This document shows, piece by piece, positions 17,063-30,937 of a DNA stretch of 64,000 bases. The position numbers and the translations under genes are program-made. A model generated the notes under the pieces. It was not told the origin of the DNA, searched no databases, and saw nothing but the letters and a program-made list of their open reading frames with translations. Within the stretch, counting starts at the first letter, position 1. Each line of letters starts with the position of its first letter. This DNA comes from an uncultured bacterium (GTDB lineage Bacteria > Patescibacteriota > Dojkabacteria > SC72). The DNA is taken from positions 83,667-147,666 of the forward strand of contig CAIVJR010000005.1 of NCBI GenBank assembly GCA_903906305.1, given 5' to 3'.

Positions 17063-17563
17063 TTGATGGACACAACAATTCTTGACGTTGAAAAATCCGT
17101 AGAACTAGAAACACAGCAAGAAATAGATTACTCTGGAAGTGACGGAGATCCGTTAATTCCATGGGAATGTCTATGTGAAGAACATCAAAGAAACAAAAAA
17201 TCCCACAGGTGGCACAAATCCTCCATGACCATAATCTCCGTAAGTGAGATTGATAAAAAGCATGTGAGAGTACATACTCCCAAGGGAGTATATATTTGCC
17301 GAATCACAAAATTCGACCAATATAAGGTTATAAGGGTTGTACGAACCAAAAAATCCTTTAAACCAAAAGATCCTCCCATTGAACTAGAAGATGAATTCCT
17401 CCCTGTCGTTATCGCCGAATGTGAGTTCTTGGAAGACAATTGGAAGGAGGTCCTTGCAGAGCAGAATCGGGAACAAAATCCCCAAGGAGAACAGCAAACA
17501 CTTAGAGTTATCTCTCCTGAAGCATTCAAAGCTGCAATGGACAAACGACAACCCAAAGCTTAA
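17063..17563 (+). CDS. orphan hypothetical protein (166 aa) inserted between rplA and rplJ
   Basis: Intact ORF with charged, Cys/His-containing N-terminal segment (WECLCEEHQRNKKSHRWH). No recognisable family. Confidence 0.4.
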   Translation: MMDTTILDVEKSVELETQQEIDYSGSDGDPLIPWECLCEEHQRNKKSHRWHKSSMTIISVSEIDKKHVRVHTPKGVYICRITKFDQYKVIRVVRTKKSFKPKDPPIELEDEFLPVVIAECEFLEDNWKEVLAEQNREQNPQGEQQTLRVISPEAFKAAMDKRQPKA

Positions 17564-19174: not shown

Positions 19175-19849
19175 ATGACCTATACACCTTTTACTCAATG
19201 GATGATTACGACTGGAGTACCACAACAAGTATTGGAATTGCTACTAGCTGTAATGATTGTAGCAACAATTGTAAGCATAGCTAGATATATAATTGGATCT
19301 AAAACATATGGAATATATGCACCAATAATATTGGCAATCGCATACTCATATACAGGTTTAAGATATGGATTAGCAATAACCTTGATAGTGATTTTGACTA
19401 CCCTACTCTCATACACCATACTACGAAGAGTACGTATGCATTACATAGCTAGAATAGCAGTAAATTACTGTCTGTTAGCTATAATGTTAGTAGTCTTCTT
19501 CATAGTCATAGGACAATTTGGTTTTGGTTTAGACAATATGGCAAATATCTCTGGACTTGCAGCAATATCAATTGCAGCACTTTCAGACTTCTTCATAAAA
19601 CAATATGTAAAGAAATCATTTAAATCTTCTGTCTTGATCCTCTTTAGCACTGTTTTCATTGCCACACTCGGATGGTTTGTCATAACCCGAGATGTCATAA
19701 CAACATATTTCTTAAACAACCTTTGGATTGTTCCAATCTTAATCATATTGAATATCCTCATTGGGCAGTTTACTGGCCTTAGAATCAAAGATCTCTTTAG
19801 ATTTAAATCAGTTATTCAGAATAAGGATAAAGATAATGTTCAGAAATAG
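19175..19849 (+). CDS. 7-TM membrane protein (7TM_transglut-like, no transglutaminase domain) that is the first gene of the ATP-grasp operon
   Basis: 224 aa with seven predicted hydrophobic helices. Its 3' end overlaps the start of the next gene by 14 nt. Confidence 0.6.
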   Translation: MTYTPFTQWMITTGVPQQVLELLLAVMIVATIVSIARYIIGSKTYGIYAPIILAIAYSYTGLRYGLAITLIVILTTLLSYTILRRVRMHYIARIAVNYCLLAIMLVVFFIVIGQFGFGLDNMANISGLAAISIAALSDFFIKQYVKKSFKSSVLILFSTVFIATLGWFVITRDVITTYFLNNLWIVPILIILNILIGQFTGLRIKDLFRFKSVIQNKDKDNVQK

Positions 19850-21293
19850 GATAAAAGATGTATTAGGACTAAACAGACGTAATCAAGAATACGTTCGTCC
19901 ATACAACCACCCAAAATCTAAAGCGTTAGCAGATAATAAGATTGCTACAAAAAAGCTTCTTGCAAAGGAAGGTATCAACACATCTGAGGTATACAAACTC
20001 ATTAAAAATCGTAAACAACTAGCCTTCTTAGATTGGGAATCATTACCAAAAAGTTTTGTAATCAAACCTAATCAAGGTACTGGTGGAAATGGAATTCTAG
20101 TAATCTATGGTAGAAAGAGGGGCGAATTAGCATGGATAAGGCCAGGCGGAGAAGTATTAAGTAAAAAAGATCTCTCCTTACACATTGAGAATATCCTCGA
20201 AGGAAGATTTTCAATGGGTGAAAGAAGCGATATCGCAATAATTGAAGAAAGAGTTAGAACTGATTCATTCCTAAAACAATACTCATACAAAGGTGTACCC
20301 GATATTAGAATCATATGTTTCAATCTCGTCCCCATTATGGCAATGATGCGAATACCTACCAAACGATCCAACGGTACTGCAAATCTACATTCTGGAGCTA
20401 TATGTACCGGTATAGACATAGCAACAGGCATAACCACCTACTCTATGCATATGAATAGCAAATCATTGTTGAGCGATACATATGAGATGATAGATAATAC
20501 TCAAGATTTGAAGATTAACAAAAAGCTTTCAGGTGTTCAGATACCTGATTGGGACAAGATCTTGGATATTGCAGTAAGATGCCAAAGAGCAAGTAAGCTT
20601 GGCTATACAGGTGTCGATATAGCATTAGACGCAGACAAAGGCCCTATCGTTTTTGAATTAAATGCTAGACCTGGCCTTGGAATCCAAGTCGCAAATCAAG
20701 CGGGTTTAAGATGGAGATTAGAAAAAGTAAAAGGATTGGAAGTGAAGAGTATTAAACACGGTATAAGGGTAGCGAAGAATCTGTTTGGTGGAGAAGTAGA
20801 AGACAGTATTGAAGCTATTAGTGGAAGAAAGGTTGTTAACATCAACGAGAAAATAACCCTGTATTACAAATCATACAAAGAAGGTAGCAAAAATGAGAAT
20901 AAAGACAGAGAGATTACTACCGCATTTGTAGATACAGGAGCTATAACCTCCCGTATCTCTCGAAGCTATGTATCCAGAATGGGATATTTCGAAACCATGA
21001 GACAGTTTGACTATCTAAAATGCCCTAAGAACTTCCTCGCTTTTAAGGATGCACAAGAATACATAGACGAATATAGTAAAAACATGACAGAGGATGCATA
21101 CATCATACGTTTAGCTAAAATCTTTGAGGATGGGCAAATAGTTGTCCGACCTGTTATCATTGTTAAAGTAAGAATATCAGGCGAAATACGTGATCTTGAA
21201 ATGATCGTAACTGAAGATAGTACACACTCTGTCACATTAGGAAGAAACGACCTCAGAGACTATTTAATTGATACAAGTAAAACATTTAAATAA
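19836..21293 (+). CDS. alpha-L-glutamate-ligase-related ATP-grasp protein (TIGR02291/RimK-related N-terminus) with a C-terminal DTGA retropepsin-like domain
   Basis: Start at MFRNRIKDVLGLNRRNQEYVRPYNHPKS...ADNKIATKKLLAKEGI, the characteristic G-x-N-R-R-N...Y-N N-terminus of the RimK-related family. ATP-grasp core (FVIKPNQGTGGNGILV ... DIALDADKGPIVFELNARPGL). C-terminal ~150 aa contain FVDTGAITS (20922-20948). Confidence 0.8.
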   Translation: MFRNRIKDVLGLNRRNQEYVRPYNHPKSKALADNKIATKKLLAKEGINTSEVYKLIKNRKQLAFLDWESLPKSFVIKPNQGTGGNGILVIYGRKRGELAWIRPGGEVLSKKDLSLHIENILEGRFSMGERSDIAIIEERVRTDSFLKQYSYKGVPDIRIICFNLVPIMAMMRIPTKRSNGTANLHSGAICTGIDIATGITTYSMHMNSKSLLSDTYEMIDNTQDLKINKKLSGVQIPDWDKILDIAVRCQRASKLGYTGVDIALDADKGPIVFELNARPGLGIQVANQAGLRWRLEKVKGLEVKSIKHGIRVAKNLFGGEVEDSIEAISGRKVVNINEKITLYYKSYKEGSKNENKDREITTAFVDTGAITSRISRSYVSRMGYFETMRQFDYLKCPKNFLAFKDAQEYIDEYSKNMTEDAYIIRLAKIFEDGQIVVRPVIIVKVRISGEIRDLEMIVTEDSTHSVTLGRNDLRDYLIDTSKTFK

Positions 21294-22282
21294 TGAAAAC
21301 ATACGAAGAATATCTAAAAGAAGCAGGAAATGTCCATTTAGCATACTATGTCGAAGCTGCTGACATCTTAGGAATCAAATATTCCATCGTTGTTAGAAGC
21401 CTAATTGCAAAGTTCGAAGTTGAAGACAAGCATTGGTTCATTATAAATACTGTTACACCCCTAACCTCCTCCCCAAGTGCTACCATTTCAAAACGAAAGA
21501 ACCTTACCAATATGGTATTAAGCTCATATGGTGTAGATGTCCCAAAGCAAGAGGGATTAACAAGCCCCATTGATGCTATAAAATTCTTTAATAAGTATAA
21601 AAACATAGTCATAAAGCCTGCTCAACAGCTTGGTGGAAAAGGTATTACCCTACTTCCAGAGACAGAAGACCAGGTTATATCTGCTTTCAACGAAGCATTC
21701 GAGAAAGATAGATCAAAAGGAGAAATTAAGGTATTGGGAGAAGAATTCATCAAAGGAGAAAACTATCGATTCTTAGTAGTTGGCGAAAACGTTGTTGGAA
21801 TAGTATGGAGAAAGGCCCCAATAGTTATCGGCAATAGCAAAAATACTATAAGAGAACTAATTGATACATCAAACAAAGAGCGTAGCCTCCTCGTTCTCAA
21901 ATCTATTCCCATAGATTCAGAAGTACAAACTAGATTAAAAAATGCTGACCTCACATTAGATTCAATTCCAGACGAAGGCCAAGTTATAACCCTTAGATAC
22001 AATTGTAATCTGACTACTGGTGGTACTACAGAAGAGTGTGCTTCCATTGTAGATCCATACTACAAGGAGCTCGCTGTAAAGGCCGTTAAGGCTCTTGATT
22101 TAGAATTCGGGGGTGTAGATATCATTGCAGAGGATATAACTAAACCAGGGAAGTGTGGAATTAATGAAATCAACTACAATCCTGGATTAAGATTACATTA
22201 CAAAGCTGACAAGGGTGAGAAGGTTAAGGTCGCTGTCCCTATTATGGAATATATTAGAGATAAGTATACAAATAAATTATAA
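21293..22282 (+). CDS. stand-alone cyanophycin-synthetase G-domain-like ATP-grasp ligase
   Basis: GENYRFLVVGENVVGIVWRKAPIVIGNSKNTIRELID ... NCNLTTGGTTEECASIVDP ... GVDIIAEDI matches CphA ATP-grasp motifs. TAATG start/stop overlap with the upstream gene. Confidence 0.75.
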   Translation: MKTYEEYLKEAGNVHLAYYVEAADILGIKYSIVVRSLIAKFEVEDKHWFIINTVTPLTSSPSATISKRKNLTNMVLSSYGVDVPKQEGLTSPIDAIKFFNKYKNIVIKPAQQLGGKGITLLPETEDQVISAFNEAFEKDRSKGEIKVLGEEFIKGENYRFLVVGENVVGIVWRKAPIVIGNSKNTIRELIDTSNKERSLLVLKSIPIDSEVQTRLKNADLTLDSIPDEGQVITLRYNCNLTTGGTTEECASIVDPYYKELAVKAVKALDLEFGGVDIIAEDITKPGKCGINEINYNPGLRLHYKADKGEKVKVAVPIMEYIRDKYTNKL

Positions 22283-22292
22283 GATAAACATT

Positions 22293-23984
22293 ATGAGTAA
22301 CGTGCAAGTATTACAAGGCCTAAATCTAGATTCAGAGATATCTGTCATAAAAATTAATGTACATAAGACCGATACTATCGTTAGATATCTTGAACTTCTT
22401 AAAAATTTTCACCCAATATTCATGCGTGAATACAAATTTGAAAATGACATCTTAAGCATTCACACAATGATAACCTCGTTGTGGAGAGAACTTGGAGAAA
22501 TAATAATCAAACTTTCAGAAGGAAAGATCGATTACGAAGAAGCAAGAAAACACACTCTTGAAGAAGTCCTTAAACAACGAGTAGCCTCTATGTCTACTAT
22601 TCCTCTAATCTTTTTTGCAAACAAAATGAAATATGAGGTAACACCAACGCTATTAGAAGACGAAAGGATAAAATACAATACAGGGCCCAATAGAATATAT
22701 ACTTTAGGCGTAGGTCGTAATTCCCAAATTATATATTCTATATCCTCTAGTAAAGATTCTAAAGAAGCAAAAGAAATTCAAAGAGATAAATATCTTACAA
22801 ACCTTATGATTCAGCGATTAGGTCTCCCTATTCCAAAATGGCAAGTCCTAGACAATATATCACAGATTGAAGAAGTCTGGAGTAGCTATGAAAAACCTGT
22901 CGTCATAAAACCAACAGGTCTTACAGGTGGGCATGGTGTTGTAGTTGGTATAGAAACGCTAGAGAAAGCAAAGGAGGCATTTAAATTTGCAAAAGAAGCA
23001 ACTCAGGATAGAATCAGAGAAGAATGGCAGCAAAAGATCATGATACAAGAACAAATCTCAGGTGAAGATTACAGGCTTCTCGTTATAAATGGCCATCTAG
23101 AAATCGCAACCAAGCGTATTCCAGCCTTCATCATAGGAGATGGCAAGCATACAATTGAAGAATTGATCGATATAACCAATACAGATCCTCGAAGAGATGT
23201 TACTAACCCTACTCATACATTAAAACCTATTAAGATTGATGATCCTCTAAAGTCATATATCAAAGATCAGAAATTAACCCTTACCTCTATTCCTAAGAAA
23301 GAGCAGAAAGTTAATGTGAGAAAGGTTGCAAGCATGAGCCAAGGCGGCATAACCGAAGATTTTACGGATAAGGTAAGCCCAGAAATTAAAGCAATTGTAG
23401 AGAGCATCGCATCATCGATTCATGCATTTACTCTAGGGGTCGATGTCATGTGTAAAGATCTTTCCAAACCATTAACAAAAGACAACGGTGCAATACTAGA
23501 AGTGAACACAATGCCTGAAGCATATCTTAATACCTATCCTGTCATTGGTGAATCCCGAGAATACGTATTCGACAAATATATAAAAGCTCTTTTAGAAGGC
23601 AATAACACAAAGCAGATAGTAATTGTAGGTAATAGCACAGAAGATGTACCTACTCTACTAAGAAAGAAATCGATCTTTGGATCATACCTCAAACAAGATG
23701 CCGTTATCGGAGAATACAAAGATGGAGAGATTAGAATTAATGGGTTGGATATAAATAAGGGCCTAGAGAAATGGAAAGCAATAGAAGGCCTTAAAGTAAA
23801 TGCATCTTTAGATGCAATGATCATACATCATAGAAATGTAGAAGAGGTTAGAGAAACAGGCTTAGGATTTAATAAAATTGACCTTTTAATGGTAGAATCT
23901 AAATATTTTGAAGATAGAGAATTTAAAAAAGCTATCCGAAGATACCAAATGAAAGGATTAATATCTAAAATAAAGAAATTCTAA
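22293..23984 (+). CDS. CphA-like ATP-grasp ligase with an N-terminal ~200-aa domain and a C-terminal ~120-aa extension, no Mur-ligase (M) domain
   Basis: Internal Met MSNVQVL at 22293. GEDYRLLVINGHLEIATKRIPAFIIGDGKHTIEELID ... MSQGGITEDFTDKV ... GVDVMCKDL is close to the CphA G-domain. Confidence 0.75.
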   Translation: MSNVQVLQGLNLDSEISVIKINVHKTDTIVRYLELLKNFHPIFMREYKFENDILSIHTMITSLWRELGEIIIKLSEGKIDYEEARKHTLEEVLKQRVASMSTIPLIFFANKMKYEVTPTLLEDERIKYNTGPNRIYTLGVGRNSQIIYSISSSKDSKEAKEIQRDKYLTNLMIQRLGLPIPKWQVLDNISQIEEVWSSYEKPVVIKPTGLTGGHGVVVGIETLEKAKEAFKFAKEATQDRIREEWQQKIMIQEQISGEDYRLLVINGHLEIATKRIPAFIIGDGKHTIEELIDITNTDPRRDVTNPTHTLKPIKIDDPLKSYIKDQKLTLTSIPKKEQKVNVRKVASMSQGGITEDFTDKVSPEIKAIVESIASSIHAFTLGVDVMCKDLSKPLTKDNGAILEVNTMPEAYLNTYPVIGESREYVFDKYIKALLEGNNTKQIVIVGNSTEDVPTLLRKKSIFGSYLKQDAVIGEYKDGEIRINGLDINKGLEKWKAIEGLKVNASLDAMIIHHRNVEEVRETGLGFNKIDLLMVESKYFEDREFKKAIRRYQMKGLISKIKKF

Positions 23985-23985
23985 T

Positions 23986-24933
23986 ATGAAATACCTCATC
24001 ATAGACAAAAGACAGCGTGTAGAAGTAGCTACAATGGGTGAAATACCTACAGGATCAGCAAGATTAGTAGAAGAATTAGATAAAAAAAATATTCCTCATG
24101 ATTTTGCATATAACGATGAAATAGAGTTCTTGTTTCATAATGGTTCCACGGTTATAAAAGTGGCAGGACATGACGTAACAGAGTACAGCAACATCATTCT
24201 TAGAGGTCATTCCTTAGGTGACGAACGTGAGTATCAATACAAGAGATTCATCATAGACTACGTTGATCAATATAATAGAGACAACCCAGAAAAAAAAGTG
24301 ATCATTCAGAATTCTAAGGCAATCAAGAATCTTCCATATTACAATAAGATAGCCTTTGCAATGCTATGTTCAAAAAATAACCTCCCCTACTTTAATACAT
24401 ATTTCCATACCAATGGGGAATATTTAAAAGATAGAGATATGTTAAAGGAATATCCATTGATTATCAAAGAATACTCGGGAATGAATAGAACTGAAATGAT
24501 TGAGGGTAAAGAGAAGATCAAGAAGAATGTGTTTAAATTAGAGAAAGATGAGGATTACAAGCAAGAAAATCTTGATGGACAAGATCTTTCCCATTTCTTC
24601 ATACAGGAATTTTCTGATGCTGGTGAAGATTACAGAATATTTGTTAAGTTAGGGAAAGTAATAGCCGGATGGAAAAGAAAGGCTGTTAATGGCTTTATGA
24701 CTGTAAGCAAGGGTGAGTACGAGATGTACAATACTCCTAACGAGGAGATAACTGAGATTGCTGAGAAGATGGCATCCGTATTAGAAGCTGACTTTATGGC
24801 CGTAGACTTTATGTATATGAATGGGAAGGCATGTATACAAGAGATAAGCTTCCATCCTGGATATAAGGCATATGAGACTAAGATTGAGGGAGAGCCAGTG
24901 AATATAGCTGAAGCTATAGTTACTGCTTTTTAA
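23986..24933 (+). CDS. RimK-like ATP-grasp ligase
   Basis: PLIIKEYSG ... FIQEFSDAGEDYRIFVKLGKVIAGWKRKA ... DFMAVDFMYMNGKACIQEISFHPG follows the RimK/glutathione-synthetase pattern. Start is 1 nt after the upstream stop. Confidence 0.7.
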   Translation: MKYLIIDKRQRVEVATMGEIPTGSARLVEELDKKNIPHDFAYNDEIEFLFHNGSTVIKVAGHDVTEYSNIILRGHSLGDEREYQYKRFIIDYVDQYNRDNPEKKVIIQNSKAIKNLPYYNKIAFAMLCSKNNLPYFNTYFHTNGEYLKDRDMLKEYPLIIKEYSGMNRTEMIEGKEKIKKNVFKLEKDEDYKQENLDGQDLSHFFIQEFSDAGEDYRIFVKLGKVIAGWKRKAVNGFMTVSKGEYEMYNTPNEEITEIAEKMASVLEADFMAVDFMYMNGKACIQEISFHPGYKAYETKIEGEPVNIAEAIVTAF

Positions 24934-27211
24934 GTCCTAGCTTCTCAAACATATTATTACTATCACCATTGTGATCATGTATTGCTTGGGCTTTGTATCT
25001 AGGTAGGACGAATATAAACTTACTTCCCTTACCTATTTCACTCTCTACTCGAATATCACCACCCATCTTACGTATAAGGTTGAAGGTTACGAATAATCCC
25101 AAACCAGTACCACCAGGTCTTACAATCTCTAGCTTCTCACCAACCTCTATGCTGGAGTTAATGTGATTCCCTGCCCTAAAGAATTTCTGTCCCAACTTAG
25201 GTAGCTCCTCTGCACTAATACCATAACCAGTATCAATAATGGATACTTCTACCCAGTTATCATCAAATCTATTCTCTATGGTCACACTACCTCTCTCTGT
25301 ATACTTAACAGCATTACTTATTAGGTTGTTCAATATCTCTACCACTCTAGCCCTATCTGCATATACATGAGGAGTATCTAATTGCATATTATTAATAATT
25401 GGAAGATCTTTTTCCATAGCATCTCTCTCATTCCCATGTATAGCCATATCTACCTCATTCTTAATATCTACCTCTTCAGGATCTATGACTATCTTATCCC
25501 CCTCTAATTTAGCACTACTCAGTAATGTATTAATTAGTTTTATTTCATTCTCTACAGCCATCTTAATCCTATCTACATACCTCTTGTATGCTTCAGGATC
25601 ACTCTGTATATCCCCTGTGAACTTCTCTAAGAGCTGTGCATTGAGTTTAACTATGGTAGCAGGTGTTCTTAACTCATGTCCCATTATATCAATCATATCG
25701 TTCTCTTTCTTACGAGCTTCCTGTAGTTCTTGAATCTTAACCTGAAGTTCTGCCGTCTGCGCATCAACCTTATATTGAAGGGTCTGATTGAAGGATTGAA
25801 GCTGCTTGTAAAGAAGGGCCTTATTAACAGAAATATGGAACTGGCTATATATACGATCCCAAAGATCTAATTCATCAATCTTGTACATCTGATTATTAGG
25901 TAGGTCTTGTATGAAAAGAACCCCTATTAGCTCACTCCCAGATACAATTGGATAGACTATTTGAATTTTAGATAACTCTAACAGATACAACAAATTAGAA
26001 TACTCTCGATATTCTAATGCATCTTTGTTACTCAAATACTCTAGCTCAGATCTGGAAAGAGATTTTAATCTTCCTACTGTAGTCGTTTCTTTATTCCAAT
26101 ACACTGGAATCTCTACAAAAATTTTATTAAGGTTTTCTATCTTCCAATCTCCATGAGTAAAACGATATGATTTTGTATTAACAGAGTCGTAAAGATATAT
26201 TTGAGCTTTGTTTGCAGAAGTATTTTGGCATATATAGCTCAAAGTCTTGTTACATATATCAGAAAGTTCTTGCTCAAAGTTAAGAAGTTTAATAAAGCCT
26301 TCACCCTTGTTTCTAAGGATCTGTTTTTCTGACAGGAAAATGTTGGCAACAGCATCTATAACTATTTTAAAAATAAGTGCTAACAAAAACGCAATTATGT
26401 AAAACAATATTTTAGGAATTTCCAACTGCTCAATTAGTGGGAAAACAACTACCAAAGAAACTACAAATACGATAGATGGAATAATGTAGAGAGATAAACT
26501 TCGCAAAATACCCCGTATCACAATCCCAAATCGTTGGAACCGTGTCTGTGTTAGACCATACGAAATAATAAGGTTTGCGATTGAGAATACCACAGGCCCA
26601 AACCAAATATATTCATAAACACCAAAGTATGGAGCTATGATATTAGCAGGGAAAGAACCCACTACTGTTAAAACATTTCCTATAATTAGATATTTTTGCT
26701 GTTCTTTCTCTATAAATGATAATGCTTTATACCCTCTTAAAGTTTTGTAAACATTAACTGCAAATACGATTGTTAACCATGCCATCCAGACCAGATATGC
26801 TTTACCAACTATTATATAGTTATTCCCTTCTAAGACAATTCTTTCTATAAAATTGTTTGTAAAGAATATTTCGTAAAGGAGAAAAAGAAATCCCCCTACT
26901 ACAAACAGAGCAAATAATAAATTGATCTTCTTTCTACGAAGATAATACGTAGAGAAAATATAATGGAACAGACCAATTGATATTGATGATAAATAGATAA
27001 TATCCGCCCAAAGTTTAGCGGTACTTAATGTATCTGTTAATAGAAAAGATACTGTTGAGAAAGCCCAAACCGGTCCAGCTATTATTCCCAAAATTCCTAA
27101 GAAAAAATATGCCTTGTTCTTTGGTTCTTTGAGAAAGGTAACTAAAGGCCCTATTAAGGAGGTAAACCCTAGTATTACAACAAACATATATAAAGTGTTA
27201 TCCCATATCAT
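24920..27211 (-). CDS. sensor histidine kinase with an N-terminal ~9-TM sensor domain
   Basis: 763 aa: nine hydrophobic helices, a cytoplasmic linker, H-box DIMGHELRTPATI and HATPase_c (GGTGLGLFVTFNLIRKMGGDIRVESEIGKGSKF). No response regulator adjacent. Confidence 0.8.
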   Translation of the reverse strand: MIWDNTLYMFVVILGFTSLIGPLVTFLKEPKNKAYFFLGILGIIAGPVWAFSTVSFLLTDTLSTAKLWADIIYLSSISIGLFHYIFSTYYLRRKKINLLFALFVVGGFLFLLYEIFFTNNFIERIVLEGNNYIIVGKAYLVWMAWLTIVFAVNVYKTLRGYKALSFIEKEQQKYLIIGNVLTVVGSFPANIIAPYFGVYEYIWFGPVVFSIANLIISYGLTQTRFQRFGIVIRGILRSLSLYIIPSIVFVVSLVVVFPLIEQLEIPKILFYIIAFLLALIFKIVIDAVANIFLSEKQILRNKGEGFIKLLNFEQELSDICNKTLSYICQNTSANKAQIYLYDSVNTKSYRFTHGDWKIENLNKIFVEIPVYWNKETTTVGRLKSLSRSELEYLSNKDALEYREYSNLLYLLELSKIQIVYPIVSGSELIGVLFIQDLPNNQMYKIDELDLWDRIYSQFHISVNKALLYKQLQSFNQTLQYKVDAQTAELQVKIQELQEARKKENDMIDIMGHELRTPATIVKLNAQLLEKFTGDIQSDPEAYKRYVDRIKMAVENEIKLINTLLSSAKLEGDKIVIDPEEVDIKNEVDMAIHGNERDAMEKDLPIINNMQLDTPHVYADRARVVEILNNLISNAVKYTERGSVTIENRFDDNWVEVSIIDTGYGISAEELPKLGQKFFRAGNHINSSIEVGEKLEIVRPGGTGLGLFVTFNLIRKMGGDIRVESEIGKGSKFIFVLPRYKAQAIHDHNGDSNNMFEKLGLKKQ

Positions 27212-28700
27212 TGTTCTTTGGCAGTTTTAATTCAAAAAATCTTGTTAAACTCATTTTCCTCTCTTCGTATGGTGGGTAATAAGAGCCTTCAATTCCTGTT
27301 AGCTCCAAGGTTTTCATTCCTGTCTTCCTTAGATCTTGAGCGATCTTTGGTGCTAGCTTCTTAGTTATTGCCCCAGCCTTCTTTGCCCCCATTAGATATC
27401 CCCAGAAACTGTTAAAACCTAATTTTTTTCTAACTTCAGCTAGAAGTTCATACTGCATAGTCGAAGATGGCGAAAAGAGTTGATTGATAAACGAAATCCC
27501 ATTTTTTTCTTTAATACTATATTCTGTATCTCCCAACTTAACATTTTTCTCAAAATTTTCTTTCTTTGTGAAGAAAATTGTCTTCAACATGCTCCCTGTA
27601 GAAAGATCAACTTGCATTCCAGGATCCAATGTACAATCTTGAAAAAGTCCTCCTGGTTTAACTCTTTTAACCATCTCGTCTACGACCTCAAAGTGAGTCT
27701 TCTCATCAAAATAGTTTATCCCGTTATCCGAAAATACAAAATGGTATGTATCATCACCCTTCTGCATAGATTCCAGAGCTGTTTCAAAATATATCGTTAC
27801 CCCCTCAAAATTCTTTTCTTTTTGCCCACTATCCAAAACAATTCGTGTAGGGATACCTCGCAAGGTTAACAACGTAGCTGCACAAATAACAGATTGAAGA
27901 GAGTTATCGGCAGAATGAAACTCAATTTTCTTTCCAGTCTCTTTAAGAGCCTCGTACATTAATGCTGTTGTGATGCCCGCACCGGTACATAATTCCTTAA
28001 CTTTGATTACTTCTTCTCCAGGAAAAGCCTCTTTCATATGATCTCTTGCCTTGGGAGCCATAATCCTTTCTAAACGATATGATTCATAGGCCAAAAGTTT
28101 GTTTAATATCCCTTCAATATTTGATTCCTCCCAATGCATAGATCTTTCCGTACTTTCATCTACGCCATTAGAAAAAAGTTTAGTTGTTTCTTTAAGTAAT
28201 TTTGGTATTAATTGATTAGACATTATTCGAATAGTTGCAGGAGCAAAAACAAATGGATTTTTTGGGTTCATGTATTCCCATTCAGCATAATTGGCATACT
28301 TTTTATGCACATCCATAAAAACAGGGACAAACTCATTTTGAGCATCTCGGACTTCAGCACTTATCTCTGTTGGAATCTTAATATACAAACCGTATTCGTC
28401 TGATCCTAACATCTTTAAATCAAGATCTTTTGGATCCTGAAGGTTAGAAATTTGGGCGTTTTCTTCATTTGTAGCTATTTGTGTCAAATAATTTGTTAAT
28501 GAAGGTAATTGCGAGATATTCTCTTCTGACTGTATTGGCTCATCTGCTGGGACTACAACTTCAGTAGTTACTGGAACGTTTGAAATTTCTTCCTGGGGTG
28601 GTTGCAAAGGAGAATTGGTTTCAACTTGCAAAGACATACCTTCACTCTCTAGTGGTGGTTTGTTATCCATTCTTATTTGGGCAATATTATGTATATACAT
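27198..28700 (-). CDS. class I SAM-dependent methyltransferase-fold protein with N- and C-terminal extensions
   Basis: 500 aa. VKELCTGAGITTAL (motif I-like G-x-G-x-G), VKPGGLF (post-I), FVFSDNGINY. Function unknown. Confidence 0.5.
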   Translation of the reverse strand: MYIHNIAQIRMDNKPPLESEGMSLQVETNSPLQPPQEEISNVPVTTEVVVPADEPIQSEENISQLPSLTNYLTQIATNEENAQISNLQDPKDLDLKMLGSDEYGLYIKIPTEISAEVRDAQNEFVPVFMDVHKKYANYAEWEYMNPKNPFVFAPATIRIMSNQLIPKLLKETTKLFSNGVDESTERSMHWEESNIEGILNKLLAYESYRLERIMAPKARDHMKEAFPGEEVIKVKELCTGAGITTALMYEALKETGKKIEFHSADNSLQSVICAATLLTLRGIPTRIVLDSGQKEKNFEGVTIYFETALESMQKGDDTYHFVFSDNGINYFDEKTHFEVVDEMVKRVKPGGLFQDCTLDPGMQVDLSTGSMLKTIFFTKKENFEKNVKLGDTEYSIKEKNGISFINQLFSPSSTMQYELLAEVRKKLGFNSFWGYLMGAKKAGAITKKLAPKIAQDLRKTGMKTLELTGIEGSYYPPYEERKMSLTRFFELKLPKNNDMG

Positions 28701-28723: not shown

Positions 28724-29893
28724 CTATATCCCCGCCTTCTCAAATATTTCTAACCATTTATCTTTGTTTGGTACGTTATTTGGCATAGGTAATAACCCAT
28801 CCTCTACCCATTCACACTGTTTAAATGTAATCTTTCCCGCATACAATTGGTTATACAATCTAGGATTCTCTTCCAATTTCTTCTTAACTTTTCTAAATCC
28901 TCTAAAATATGCAATATCTTTACAATATATTCCTCGATCATGTGTATCCCCCAATCCTCTTTTAACACTATATGTAACATCAAATGCAGAATACTTAGGT
29001 AAAACAGCCAAAAGAACATTGTAAAGCTCTCTAAAGGAAAGATCTTCACCTAGATATACAGCCCATGTTAATGCTGCTTTGTTCTTCAACCATTTCTCTG
29101 TAAGAAGACCCATATTACTCTCATTCCATGTAGCCAAACCCTCCTCAACATCCAAATATTCAGGAAGATTAGCATTACTCAAAGCATTGAACCCACATTT
29201 CATACCATTTTCCGCTCTTAAAGCATGGGTCCCAACCTCGTGTACTAAAGTTTTTCGTAATTTGAAATTACTTCTTTCAATATTGGAATCCACCAAAATC
29301 TCTTTTCGTTTAATACCAAGCTTAATTCCATTTTTTGAAATATTTGCAGATTCATTTACAGTCCAACCATCTAACCCTAGCTCTCTGAAAGTAATGTCAA
29401 ATACTTTTTCAATATCATCATGATACAAAATCTTCCTCCTATTTATATCATCCTCCTTTACCACGTTGTAGTTATCTAACTTTCCTCTCAGTACCCTAGC
29501 CGCATTCCTAAATAGCTTGTCACTAGGTTTACCATACCTATGTACAGAAATATCAGTAACCTCTTCGTTATTACCAACCGCATACATAAGGTCGCTGGCT
29601 TCCTTTTTTGAATCAATTAACTGAAGGTAGAAATCAGAAATGCGAGGATCCACATCAACAATCTCTTTAACATTAGAAAGTTTCTTCAATATCTCTTTGT
29701 TATTATTCTTTACAATCCTGTATTCAAATACCGGATTGTATATCTCGCTATTAAAGAATTTCTTCTTCTCTGCTTCTAAGTTTGTAGGTGTAAATACTAA
29801 TGCAGTCGGTATCCTCAAATCACCAAGTAGCTTAGTAACTTCATCAAGCCTTAATGTCTTCTTTTTTCTAGCAAATATTTCCATGGGATACAT
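28724..29893 (-). CDS. DUF1704 / QEGLA-motif family protein (MATCAP-like HExxH metallopeptidase)
   Basis: 389 aa with HEVGTHALR (HExxH, 29223-29243) and a downstream EEGLA (29131-29151), the family-defining Q/EEGLA motif. Confidence 0.7.
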   Translation of the reverse strand: MYPMEIFARKKKTLRLDEVTKLLGDLRIPTALVFTPTNLEAEKKKFFNSEIYNPVFEYRIVKNNNKEILKKLSNVKEIVDVDPRISDFYLQLIDSKKEASDLMYAVGNNEEVTDISVHRYGKPSDKLFRNAARVLRGKLDNYNVVKEDDINRRKILYHDDIEKVFDITFRELGLDGWTVNESANISKNGIKLGIKRKEILVDSNIERSNFKLRKTLVHEVGTHALRAENGMKCGFNALSNANLPEYLDVEEGLATWNESNMGLLTEKWLKNKAALTWAVYLGEDLSFRELYNVLLAVLPKYSAFDVTYSVKRGLGDTHDRGIYCKDIAYFRGFRKVKKKLEENPRLYNQLYAGKITFKQCEWVEDGLLPMPNNVPNKDKWLEIFEKAGI

Positions 29894-29917: not shown

Positions 29918-30937
29918 CTATCTCCTAAAATCTCTGTTAAATGAGAACTTCCTTGAGCCCTCTTCTATGAGGTCTAAAGCAATACCAGTACCTTTTACTA
30001 CACAAAAAAGAGGATCATCTGCGACATGAGCAGGCACACCTGTAGCACGAGAGAAAAGTTTGTCTAAATTTCTTAGCAAGGATGTACCACCACTCATGAC
30101 CATACCACGATCCATAATGTCAGCAGATAGCTCTGGAGGAGTCTTTTCTAATACTGCTTGTATACTCTTAATTATACTCCTCAATGGCCACTCTACAGCT
30201 TTAGCAATATCATTGGAATTAACAATTACTGATTTAGGCATACCAGCTCCAACATCTCTTCCCCTTACTTCCATCTCCCTTGGATCTTTTACCTCTAATG
30301 CACTCCCTATCTTTATCTTTATCTTCTCAGCTGTCTGTTCACCAATTAAAAGGCCTTTCTTTTTACGCATGTATGAGATTATGGCCTCATTAATAGCGTC
30401 ACCTGCTACTCTTAGAGATTCATATTCTACTACTCCGTCAAGGGATATAACCGCGACTTCGGTGGTACCACCACCCATATTTATAATCATATTTCCAGAT
30501 GATGTATTTATTGGCATCTCCGCACCCAATGCAGCTAACAGAGGTTCTGGGAGTAATGTAACATTCCTTGCACCAACCGCATTTGCAGCTTTAAGTACAG
30601 CTCTTTCTTCTACAGAAGTAATACCTGCAGGTACACTAATTACAACATCAGGTTTGAAAAATCTTCCTTTTCCCAATGCTTTGTCAAAGAAGTATCTAAG
30701 TAAAGCTTCAGTTACTCGAGAATCAGCTATGACACCATTACGAAGAGGTCTTTTGGCAACGATATTATCTGGAGTCTTACCAATCATTTCTTTAGCTTCC
30801 ATACCTACAGCTATGACAGTGAAGTTGTTTACATCTATGGCCACAACGGTAGGTTCAGTTAAGACAATCCCTTCCCCTTGGACAAATACAACTGAGTTAG
30901 CTGTTCCTAGGTCTATACCTAATTTCTTTACAAACAT
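29918..30937 (-). CDS. second MreB/Mbl-family actin-like protein (paralog)
   Basis: 339 aa (GIDLGTANSVVFV ... NMGGGTTEVAVIS). Clearly distinct from the mreB at 8.1-9.2 kb. Confidence 0.85.
   Translation of the reverse strand: MFVKKLGIDLGTANSVVFVQGEGIVLTEPTVVAIDVNNFTVIAVGMEAKEMIGKTPDNIVAKRPLRNGVIADSRVTEALLRYFFDKALGKGRFFKPDVVISVPAGITSVEERAVLKAANAVGARNVTLLPEPLLAALGAEMPINTSSGNMIINMGGGTTEVAVISLDGVVEYESLRVAGDAINEAIISYMRKKKGLLIGEQTAEKIKIKIGSALEVKDPREMEVRGRDVGAGMPKSVIVNSNDIAKAVEWPLRSIIKSIQAVLEKTPPELSADIMDRGMVMSGGTSLLRNLDKLFSRATGVPAHVADDPLFCVVKGTGIALDLIEEGSRKFSFNRDFRR

Follow-up and report, generated by a model that had tools for sequence, protein, structure and literature searches.

The Rim system of Pseudomonas fluorescens, which also includes RimA, pairs RimK, a ligase that adds poly-alpha-L-glutamate to ribosomal protein S6, with RimB, a cytoplasmic retropepsin-like protease that cleaves the poly-Glu tails made by RimK and stimulates the RimK ATPase (PMC7343187, PMC11957791). 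The rlo operon of Pseudomonas aeruginosa/fluorescens encodes RloA, a secreted retropepsin-like peptidase, and RloC, an ATP-grasp protein (mBio 2025, PMC12239564), together with RloB, an inactive transglutaminase fused to a 7TM module (PMC12239564). Osmotic tolerance, cell shape, biofilm formation, and antibiotic sensitivity are under the control of the Rlo system in Pseudomonas, and the defects of an rloA triple deletion are suppressed by mutations in rloB or rloC. RloA cleaves stretches of at least 8 Glu, interruptions of which abolish cleavage, and binds polyglutamate through K46, R114, and R137. It has been proposed that rlo arose from rim within the Gammaproteobacteria. The corresponding protease family, PF05618, was formerly called Zn_protease ("ATP-dependent Zn protease") and is now described as "RimB-like".

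The DNA analyzed here, referred to as the window, is a stretch of 64,000 nucleotides from an uncultured bacterium of the Dojkabacteria, which belong to the candidate phyla radiation (CPR, Patescibacteria). An initial sequence-only reading had noted in it a ligase gene with a protease-like extension, and had given as background that stand-alone homologs of the extension are frequent neighbors of rimK; this agrees with the literature on RimB/RimK and RloA/RloC.

RESULTS

Layout and spread of the fusion protein

The features of the fusion gene are as follows.

19836 to 21293, + strand: fusion gene, an open reading frame with ATG start and TAA stop, 485 aa
19875 to 20732, + strand: ATP-grasp ligase domain of the RloC/TIGR02291 type, residues 14-299 (PF14397, TIGR02291)
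20736 to 20825, + strand: inter-domain linker, residues 301-330, with two predicted helices
20826 to 21290, + strand: retropepsin-like (RimB/RloA-like, PF05618-related) domain, residues 331-485
20931 to 20942, + strand: D366-T367-G368-A369, putative catalytic motif, in a loop between strands 358-365 and 372-375 (AF2 model)
20961 to 21077, + strand: helical insertion, residues 376-414, between the post-DTG strand and the second barrel half

From N to C terminus, the product comprises the ATP-grasp ligase, the helical linker, and the retropepsin-like domain. A hydropathy scan revealed neither a signal peptide nor a transmembrane segment (the maximum 19-residue hydropathy is 1.47, and the N terminus is hydrophilic), and the protein is therefore predicted to be cytoplasmic. 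The full-length AF2 model has a pLDDT of 89.2 and a pTM of 0.70, a value at which the mutual placement of the ligase and protease domains is not defined by the model, which is of a monomer. An identical protein in public collections is labeled "alpha-L-glutamate ligase-like protein"; Dojkabacteria proteins of this kind are named ligases or hypothetical proteins only, and their protease domain goes undetected.

The sequence-only proposal that ligase and protease-like domain share one polypeptide is borne out by an in-frame fusion that is conserved in relatives: in 79 of 82 related loci from independent assemblies (80 species genomes, those named being Dojkabacteria/WS6), one alignment runs across the boundary between the two domains. 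All 21 members listed for the 90% cluster of the protein are 480-485 aa long, and 110 of the best 120 full-length relatives, among which those named come from other CPR lineages, carry both PF14397 and PF05618. Several other CPR lineages have the fusion as well, and automatic Pfam annotation has already picked it up there; it is neither an artifact nor unique to this genome. A split gene in the relatives was considered when a first homolog search returned N-terminally truncated proteins only, and it was rejected because the fusion is intact in the listed 90%-cluster members and in 79 of the 82 loci. The truncations trace to gene calls that are frameshifted or lie at contig edges, many of the contigs being short; loci L001 and L002 contain frameshifts, and the ribosomal L1 gene of L001 is also split. 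A literature search found no publication on fusion proteins of ATPgrasp_ST and PF05618. The amidoligase survey of Iyer et al. in 2009 reportedly treats neighborhoods of ATP-grasp, COG4067, and 7TM-transglutaminase genes, and may already mention such fusions.

The ligase domain

PF14397 (ATPgrasp_ST) matches residues 14-299 strongly (E=1.3e-64, 218.5 bits, cut-off 31.4). Among the NCBIfam models, the protein scores 289.7 bits with TIGR02291 (rimK_rel_E_lig), below the cut-off of 314.2, and falls far lower with the RimK family model TIGR00768 (48.1 bits, cut-off 143.4) and with PRK10446, ribosomal protein S6 glutamate ligase (22.4 bits, cut-off 331). A Foldseek search with the ligase domain placed RimK structures 5zct, 4iwx, and 7qys at the top (E~3e-10), and the best structural matches are RimK, ArgX, and CphA1 (E~1e-10). 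The ligase is of the RloC/TIGR02291/PF14397 type and not RimK proper, with RimK as its closest solved fold; the earlier label "RimK-related" holds for the fold but not for the family (48 bits with TIGR00768, against 143). Residues K77, D261, E274, and N276 and the loop containing G81, G84, and G86 are invariant in 51 relatives, and by analogy with the ATP-grasp family they would bind nucleotide and Mg. Since these motif residues are invariant and RimK is the best structural match, the ligase domain is likely to be enzymatically active.

The retropepsin-like domain and the linker

The last ~155 residues form a genuine though divergent retropepsin-like domain, homologous to PF05618 (RimB/RloA); the reading from the sequence is supported by structural and profile evidence. 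With the window protein alone, all protease matches in Pfam, NCBIfam, and PDB sequences are sub-threshold; PF05618 gives 13.7 bits (E=0.059), below its gathering cut-off of 27 bits, and is restricted to the second half of the domain. The assignment therefore called for family profiles and structure prediction. The predicted structure and a fold search identify a retropepsin fold, with the crystal structures of RloA and RloA2 among the best fold and profile matches; of the checks that had been suggested for the C terminus, structure prediction thus upheld the domain, while the Pfam profile search remained sub-threshold for the single sequence. A profile of the Dojkabacteria clade has RloA2 (E=0.013) and RloA (E=0.028) as its first matches. 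A broader fused-family profile, which includes the window sequence, matches RloA (9g58) over the whole domain (E=1.2e-10), as well as RloA2 (E=6e-10), Lpg0085 (E=2.5e-6), and Ddi1 (E=2e-4). When 1.84 billion representative proteins were searched with the clade profile, PF05618 was present in 45 of 48 short hits and in 16 of the 22 long-hit sequences scanned.

The insertion that follows the post-DTG strand is modeled as three helices (376-381, 385-393, and 403-414 in the AF2 model) and is found in every fused CPR relative aligned; in the alignment to RloA 9g58, this region is shorter and poorly matched. The linker forms helices at 306-317 and 320-329 in the AF2 model, the second being Glu-rich (GGEVEDSIEAISG), and the pLDDT drops to 61 within residues 321-330. 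With a mean identity of 83% to the window protein (ligase domain 71%, protease domain 49%), the linker is the best-conserved segment within the Dojkabacteria clade. Its acidic consensus is GGE(V/I)E(E/D)xIE(E/A)ISG; across the broad CPR family, conservation of E320, E322, E324, and E326 is 90% or higher.

The DTGA motif and the substrate pocket

The motif FVDTGAITS, present as the sequence-only reading had stated, occupies residues 364-372 (DNA 20925-20951); the coordinates given there, 20922-20948, are one codon off and cover AFVDTGAIT. DTGA is the sole D[TS]G of the fusion protein and aligns with the DTG of RloA and RloA2 and the D[ST]G of Ddi1. Shuffling the 185-residue tail 200,000 times produced two hydrophobic residues followed by DTGA in 0.03% of cases and any D[TS]G in 9.6%. 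By itself, the motif is a suggestive hint of protease identity, and it is the fold and profile evidence that makes the C-terminal domain more than a chance match.

Among the Dojkabacteria orthologs, D is kept in 79 of 80, T in all 80, and G in 77. The Ala of the signature as first described is not conserved in this clade: it is present in the window protein but in just 4 of the 80, V, I, or L being usual. The arginine of an RPV motif is invariant in the clade alignment. The retention of D, T, and this arginine in a domain averaging 49% identity fits selection on catalysis. In a few relatives, DTG is replaced by NTG, and catalysis therefore appears to be dispensable in some lineages.

The broad CPR family retains DTGA in 49 of 51 sequences and each of the three basic polyglutamate-site positions in 50 or 51 of 51. 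In the window protein, by a mapping inferred from offsets to the catalytic Asp, the equivalent of RloA R114 is kept as R438, F364 takes the place of K46, and the site of R137 is lost to a two-residue deletion; Ser373 is replaced by an invariant Arg in the Dojkabacteria clade. The loss of two of the three RloA basic residues in the Dojkabacteria branch leaves the substrate uncertain. Judged from these sequence changes, polyglutamate may not be the substrate of the Dojkabacteria fusion, and because of the pocket substitutions we did not adopt it as the substrate for this clade.

Gene neighborhood

Five further genes of the window belong with the fusion gene.

19175 to 19849, + strand: upstream partner gene, 224-aa multi-pass membrane protein (PF14402 7TM_transglut, E=1.8e-16)
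21293 to 22282, + strand: downstream ATP-grasp ligase 1, 329 aa (NF010623, E=3.7e-60, part of the profile only)
22290 to 23984, + strand: downstream ATP-grasp ligase 2, 564 aa, cyanophycin-synthetase-like (NF010623, E=3.3e-73)
23986 to 24933, + strand: downstream RimK-family ATP-grasp ligase, 315 aa (PF08443, E=6.4e-8; MptN/RimK-family NCBIfam matches)
28724 to 29893, - strand: MATCAP/QEGLA-motif putative metallopeptidase, 389 aa (PF08014, E=1.4e-26; TIGR02421, E=8.8e-33)

The start of the fusion gene overlaps the end of the upstream 7TM gene by 14 nt, an AAGGA lies 8 nt 5' of its ATG, and its stop codon overlaps the ATG of the next gene (TAATG). The upstream protein, which has five strong hydrophobic peaks, matches the RloB model NF052267 at positions 311-507 only (36 bits, cut-off 900) and corresponds to the 7TM module of RloB alone, lacking the transglutaminase domain. 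In the Dojkabacteria loci extending that far, as in the other CPR lineages examined, the fusion gene is immediately preceded by a 7TM_transglut gene, and we therefore regard the module as a cytoplasmic, fused counterpart of Pseudomonas rloABC and rimBK.

All three downstream ATP-grasp ligases, the first of which is related to the ATP-grasp module of cyanophycin synthetase and GshAB, are conserved in position in the Dojkabacteria loci. The conserved cluster ends with the MATCAP/QEGLA gene, which in most Dojkabacteria loci directly follows the RimK-like gene on the opposite strand; here a histidine-kinase gene and a 500-aa open reading frame are inserted before it. Linkage to rplJ-rplL is absent from the other CPR loci examined and was judged to be lineage-specific synteny.

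DISCUSSION

Proposed function and alternatives

We think it rather probable, by analogy with the Pseudomonas systems, that the fusion protein is a bifunctional cytoplasmic enzyme in which a tethered, dimerizing protease trims what the ligase makes. The N-terminal RloC/RimK-type domain would carry out ATP-dependent amino acid ligation to build a peptide tail or a free oligopeptide, by analogy an alpha-linked acidic chain. The C-terminal domain would be a divergent RimB/RloA-type aspartic endopeptidase, active when two fusion proteins bring their Asp366 residues together, and would cut the ligase product and so set its length or recycle it. Stimulation of the ligase, as described for RimB and RimK, may be a further role of this domain. 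The enzyme would work with the translationally coupled upstream 7TM membrane protein, the two genes forming a CPR counterpart of rloB-rloC plus rloA in which the protease is tethered inside the cell and not secreted. In Dojkabacteria, this module sits within a fixed cluster that also contains a MATCAP-type peptidase and three further ATP-grasp ligases.

A possibility that we rate as distinctly less probable is that the retropepsin-like domain no longer works as a protease and persists as a module for peptide binding, dimerization, or allostery, retaining the growing chain or activating the ligase. The missing basic residues of the polyglutamate site, the unconserved Ala in the Dojkabacteria clade, and the NTG of some relatives would all fit such a role, as would the stimulation of the RimK ATPase by RimB binding, and inactive peptidase-like binders are a known theme, the transglutaminase domain of RloB being itself inactive. 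The near-complete retention of D (79/80) and T (80/80) and the invariant RPV arginine in a domain averaging 49% identity speak for a working protease, however, and the broad CPR family keeps both DTGA (49/51) and the basic positions (50 or 51/51). It seems unlikely that the protease mainly acts on its own polypeptide, cutting the Glu-rich linker to free ligase and protease in the manner of a retroviral polyprotein protease. That acidic segment is the most conserved of the protein (83% in the clade, with Glu positions at least 90% conserved across CPR), its second helix has a pLDDT as low as 61, and RimB and RloA are endopeptidases for Glu-rich sequences; yet RloA needs at least 8 consecutive Glu, the linker never has more than 3 in a row, and its I-x3-I-x2-I spacing suggests an amphipathic helix with a structural role.

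We consider it highly improbable that the DTGA is a chance tetrapeptide in an unrelated extension, or that the fusion reflects a missed stop codon or assembly error. The sub-threshold matches of the window sequence alone, the frequency of D[TS]G in shuffled tails (9.6%), and the database relatives that seemed truncated or split pointed that way, but both versions are refuted by the fold and profile evidence and by the junction spanned in 79 of 82 independently assembled loci; the uniform 480-485 aa of the listed 90%-cluster members and the tracing of truncated relatives to frameshifts and contig edges agree with this.

The fixed seven-gene set of Dojkabacteria comprises the 7TM gene, four ATP-grasp ligases (one with the retropepsin domain), the MATCAP-type metallopeptidase, and a neighboring mreB. 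As a speculation to which we give little weight, it might constitute a bacterial "tail code" in which the ligases write amino acid tails and the two peptidases erase them. The tails would then sit on a cytoskeletal, ribosomal, or envelope protein, in parallel to the eukaryotic tubulin TTL/TTLL ligases and the MATCAP detyrosinase, and the remodeled pocket (K to F, "DR" deleted, new Arg) would reflect a tail chemistry other than polyglutamate.

Fusion of two domains is classically taken to mean that they share a product. The conserved covalent joining of an RloC-type ligase to an RloA/RimB-type protease accordingly argues that both activities act on the same product, and the single-polypeptide version is a convenient object for learning what RloC-type ligases make. 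The occurrence of a cytoplasmic-protease form with a 7TM partner outside the Proteobacteria also bears on the proposal that rlo arose from rim in the Gammaproteobacteria.

Comparison with known systems

The HIV-1, EIAV, and FIV proteases, the Ddi1 RVP domain, and Rickettsia APRc share just 14-20% identity with the window domain. Retroviral and Ddi1-type retropepsins reside in a polyprotein or in a ubiquitin-like shuttle protein and lack the large helical insertion, whereas the window domain has the insertion and is attached to a ligase.

The fusion proteins of other CPR lineages, variously named "alpha-L-glutamate ligase-like protein", [quoted passage not shown], and "ATP-dependent zinc protease", are 38-51% identical to the window protein and have the same architecture (464-565 aa), the Glu-rich linker, the helical insert, and the upstream 7TM gene. 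They differ in retaining AK/R-x-DTGA as well as the "DR" arginine and in being recognized by Pfam. The Dojkabacteria branch, in contrast, has F, Y, or M at position -2, DTG followed by V, I, or L, a deleted "DR" site, a new invariant Arg373, and a YLIDT[ST]xTF tail, and lies below the PF05618 threshold.

With RloABC, the module shares the combination of a PF14402 7TM protein, an ATP-grasp protein of the PF14397/TIGR02291 type, and a PF05618-type domain. The protease is, however, fused to the ligase C terminus and predicted to be cytoplasmic, whereas RloA is separate and secreted with a signal peptide; the 7TM protein lacks the transglutaminase domain, the ligase falls short of the TIGR02291 cut-off, and the protease domain is missing the equivalents of K46 and R137 and has 39 residues of helical insertion after the DTG strand. 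The window module comes from a CPR bacterium, while RloB is reported to be 96% proteobacterial (PMC12239564).

RimK and RimB resemble the window protein in pairing a cytoplasmic ATP-grasp ligase with a cytoplasmic PF05618 protease. Nothing was found that ties the window module to ribosomal protein S6, its ligase is not of the RimK family by NCBIfam (48 versus 143 bits with TIGR00768), and it has a 7TM partner. RimK and RimB are separate polypeptides, and the two activities reside in one polypeptide here; by analogy, such a covalent fusion would be the expected fixed form of a RimK-RimB-like partnership.

Gene organization and the ligase domain

The fusion gene stands in a series of genes, which read as follows in the window.

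19175-19849, + strand: membrane protein, 224 aa (PF14402, 7TM_transglut; positions 311-507 of NF052267)
19836-21293, + strand: fusion ORF, 485 residues (ATG start at 19836, TAA stop ending at 21293)
21293-22282, + strand: ATP-grasp protein, related to the cyanophycin synthetase/GshAB ATP-grasp module
22290-23984, + strand: second ATP-grasp protein, related to the same module
23986-24933, + strand: RimK-family ligase
24920-27211, - strand: histidine kinase, 763 aa, with an N-terminal 7TM region (HisKA_7TM)
27198-28700, - strand: 500-aa ORF, no family match
28724-29893, - strand: MATCAP/QEGLA putative metallopeptidase
29918-30937, - strand: mreB, next after the MATCAP gene

An AAGGA lies 8 nt 5' of the fusion-gene ATG. 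The gene's start shares 14 nt with the end of the upstream gene, and its stop codon runs into the start codon of the following gene (TAATG); these overlaps at both ends point to an operon with translational coupling. PF14397 (ATPgrasp_ST) matches residues 14-299 from end to end (E=1.3e-64). The NCBIfam model TIGR02291 ("alpha-L-glutamate ligase-like protein," the RloC family) falls just under its cut-off (289.7 bits versus 314.2), and RimK-family models match weakly, scoring under the TIGR00768 cut-off. Among solved structures, RimK matches the ATP-grasp domain of the full-length model best, with ArgX/LysX, CphA1, and Ddl behind it. The NCBI, JGI, and ENA collections already include the exact protein, under the TIGR02291 name.

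The 224-aa upstream protein matches only the 7TM part of RloB, and Pfam and NCBIfam revealed no transglutaminase domain in it. Its gene is found directly 5' of the fusion gene, mostly overlapping it, in Dojkabacteria loci that reach that far, and a 7TM gene also precedes the fusion gene in three other lineages: Jacksonbacteria (whose 7TM protein has PKD domains fused to it), Pacebacteria, and one more, derived from metagenome data. The conserved core is therefore a two-gene module, 7TM plus fusion gene. A variant architecture in the candidate phyla radiation (CPR) has N-terminal PKD domains on the upstream 7TM protein (L083/L084, 5339-6991). Farther upstream, a 166-aa ORF 5' of rplJ (17063-17563, + strand) has no Pfam match, and the spacing from rplL to the 7TM gene varies among relatives from about 0.1 to over 3 kb.

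Dojkabacteria have a fixed cluster comprising the 7TM protein, the fusion plus three further ATP-grasp ligases (two of them cyanophycin-synthetase-like and the third RimK-like), and, on the opposite strand, a MATCAP/QEGLA-type metallopeptidase followed by mreB. Nearly all of 80 species genomes preserve this order of genes. The histidine kinase and the 500-aa ORF are found between the RimK-like and MATCAP genes only in the window and its closest relatives (L003-L006), and these two genes abut in other Dojkabacteria; the kinase and the ORF are an insertion before the MATCAP gene. Seven loci (L074, L077-L079, L082, L030, and L032) carry 1 to 4 kb of extra sequence inside the cluster, either between the two cyanophycin-synthetase-like genes or between the second of these and the RimK-like gene. 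In Pacebacteria, a MATCAP gene and two RimK-like genes also lie 3' of the fusion gene.

The retropepsin-like domain

The principal features of the C-terminal part, from the sequence (FVDTGAITS, DTGA) and the full-length model (pLDDT 89.2, pTM 0.70), are as follows.

Residues 306-317 and 320-329: two linker helices
Residues 364-372 (DNA 20925-20951, + strand): FVDTGAITS
DNA 20931-20942, + strand: DTGA
Residues 376-414: helical insertion inside the protease domain
Residues 476-479: final strand, from the clade-invariant YLID

The sequence-only reading had recognized FVDTGAITS, though with coordinates one codon off, and had taken the tail for a retropepsin-like domain, an assignment with which profile and structural evidence agree. 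The protein has no D[TS]G other than DTGA, and when the 185-residue tail is shuffled, hydrophobic-hydrophobic-DTGA turns up in 0.03% of cases. For the window sequence alone, protease matches were below threshold yet mutually consistent: gag-asp_proteas and Asp_protease_2 at DTGA (E~1e-3), PF05618 (RimB-like) over the second half of the domain (E=0.059, 13.7 bits versus a threshold of 27), and TIGR03698 clan AA at the C-terminal end. A profile of 19 close relatives (A2), run against PDB sequences, placed RloA2 and RloA at the top (E=0.013 and 0.028), with Ddi1 and Lpg0085 next in rank. When this profile was searched against 1.84 billion representative proteins, 88 matched; PF05618 was present in 45 of 48 short ones, and among 22 long sequences scanned, 16 had PF05618 and 19 had PF14397. 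With a profile of the broader fused family, window sequence included (A5), RloA (9g58) matched over the whole domain at E=1.2e-10, RloA2 at 6e-10, Lpg0085 at 2.5e-6, and Ddi1 at 2e-4. For an AlphaFold2 model of residues 325-485 (pLDDT 82, pTM 0.77), Foldseek's top 50 PDB matches were all retropepsins, including Lpg0085, RloA, RloA2, HIV-1 protease, Ddi1, and Rickettsia APRc. Both AlphaFold2 models place Asp366 at the end of a beta-strand, with the T-G-A loop and a further strand after it, a predicted layout that is canonical at the level of strands and loop.

Reality and spread of the fusion

All 15 listed members of the window protein's 90% cluster (21 members) are 480 to 485 aa long. When one genome of each GTDB species was scanned for the clade motif YLIDT[ST][KND]TF, 80 loci were obtained. 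Labels at taxon level read Candidatus Dojkabacteria or candidate division WS6; many further records of the scan (L003-L080) were deposited as "uncultured Candidatus Saccharibacteria" though they have the Dojkabacteria-specific motif and full cluster, and a few are labeled Microgenomates (one), Patescibacteria, or simply "bacterium"; the Saccharibacteria and Microgenomates labels seem to be placeholders or wrong assignments. In 79 of 82 loci the ligase-protease junction lies within one continuous tblastn alignment, bearing out the earlier suggestion that both domains lie in one polypeptide.

A split gene in relatives was considered and rejected, the truncated relatives being frameshifted or contig-edge gene calls. 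Frameshifts break the orthologous gene in two metagenome contigs (L001, 9490-10948; L002, 9708-11206), and the ribosomal protein L1 gene of L001 is also split; the frameshifts most probably reflect errors in sequencing, not pseudogenes, and account for the truncated database proteins.

With a full-length profile, 4633 of 8000 scored candidates reached E<=1e-10. The best 120 of these are all 464 to 565 aa long, have source names that include Jacksonbacteria, Paceibacterota, Moranbacteria, Kuenenbacteria, and Pacebacteria, and in 110 cases have precomputed PF05618 and PF14397; the fusion is therefore present in several CPR lineages and already seen by automatic annotation. Some full-length relatives are named "ATP-dependent zinc protease" by NCBI. 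The Dojkabacteria branch is a divergent offshoot of this family, under the Pfam threshold. A literature search, outside whose reach lay the 2009 amidoligase survey of Iyer et al., found no published description of the fusion. Two longer proteins of other CPR lineages, P0069 (688 aa) and P0098 (703 aa), comprise one fusion with an extra C-terminal YdjC-like domain and another long protein that also matches 7TM_transglut.

Conservation and the protease pocket

Mean identity within the clade is highest in the linker (83%), followed by the ligase (71%) and the protease domain (49%). Dojkabacteria orthologues keep D in 79, T in 80, and G in 77 of 80 sequences, but Ala comes next in only 4 of them. 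The polyglutamate-binding residues of Pseudomonas aeruginosa RloA (K46, R114, and R137) were mapped onto the fused family by their offsets from the catalytic Asp in the alignment to RloA; each position is kept in 50 or 51 of 51 sequences of the broad CPR family. In the window protein R114 is kept as R438, K46 is replaced by F364, and R137 falls in a two-residue deletion; at the position of Ser373 an Arg is invariant in the clade. With F364, the deletion, and the new Arg, the pocket appears remodeled in the Dojkabacteria clade. NTG replaces DTG in a few fused relatives (P0042, P0243, and one Dojkabacteria locus, YMNTG), which suggests that some lineages have lost protease activity while retaining the domain.

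Proposed mechanism and alternatives

RimK builds chains of alpha-glutamate; RimB binds to it, stimulates its ATPase, and cleaves the polyglutamate tails (PMC7343187, PMC11957791). RloA acts on runs of eight or more Glu residues, and in Pseudomonas the defects caused by lack of all three RloA proteins are relieved when RloB or RloC is lost as well, implying that the protease disposes of the product of the ligase and membrane protein. On these facts, the window protein may be read as a ligase that carries a protease of its own to trim what it makes. The enzyme would act at the membrane with its 7TM partner, and the protease domain would become active once two chains pair. Since the protease lacks an export signal, trimming would be cytoplasmic, like that of the Rim system, and not outside the cell as in Pseudomonas Rlo. 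Two of the three polyglutamate contacts are lost in the Dojkabacteria clade, where the substrate may therefore be something other than polyglutamate. Domain identities, fusion, synteny, and cytoplasmic location are established for the window protein; the further steps would hold by analogy with RimK-RimB and RloABC.

A non-catalytic binding or activating role for the retropepsin-like domain, for which RimB's stimulation of RimK and the NTG relatives offer some precedent, seems unlikely. Self-excision at the acidic linker, whose second helix is Glu-rich and has the lowest model confidence, is more doubtful still. A chance DTGA or an artefactual fusion is effectively excluded.

Comparison with known systems

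The fusion supports the view that ligase and protease are directly coupled in the Rlo system, itself poorly understood, represents an evolutionary form absent from the published rlo scenario, and offers a handy single-chain model for experiments. It will hardly surprise a specialist, as fusions of interacting partners are expected. The window protein, which lies under the cut-offs of TIGR02291, TIGR00768, and PF05618, is clearly a divergent branch of unpublished, database-visible CPR ATPgrasp_ST::RimB-like fusions. The CPR module would share its mode of working with RimK-RimB and has the same parts as RloABC, but it lacks defining features of both: RloA is secreted, whereas the protease domain of the window protein is not, RloB has a transglutaminase domain, whereas the 7TM partner has none, and the window protein reaches none of the three family cut-offs just named.
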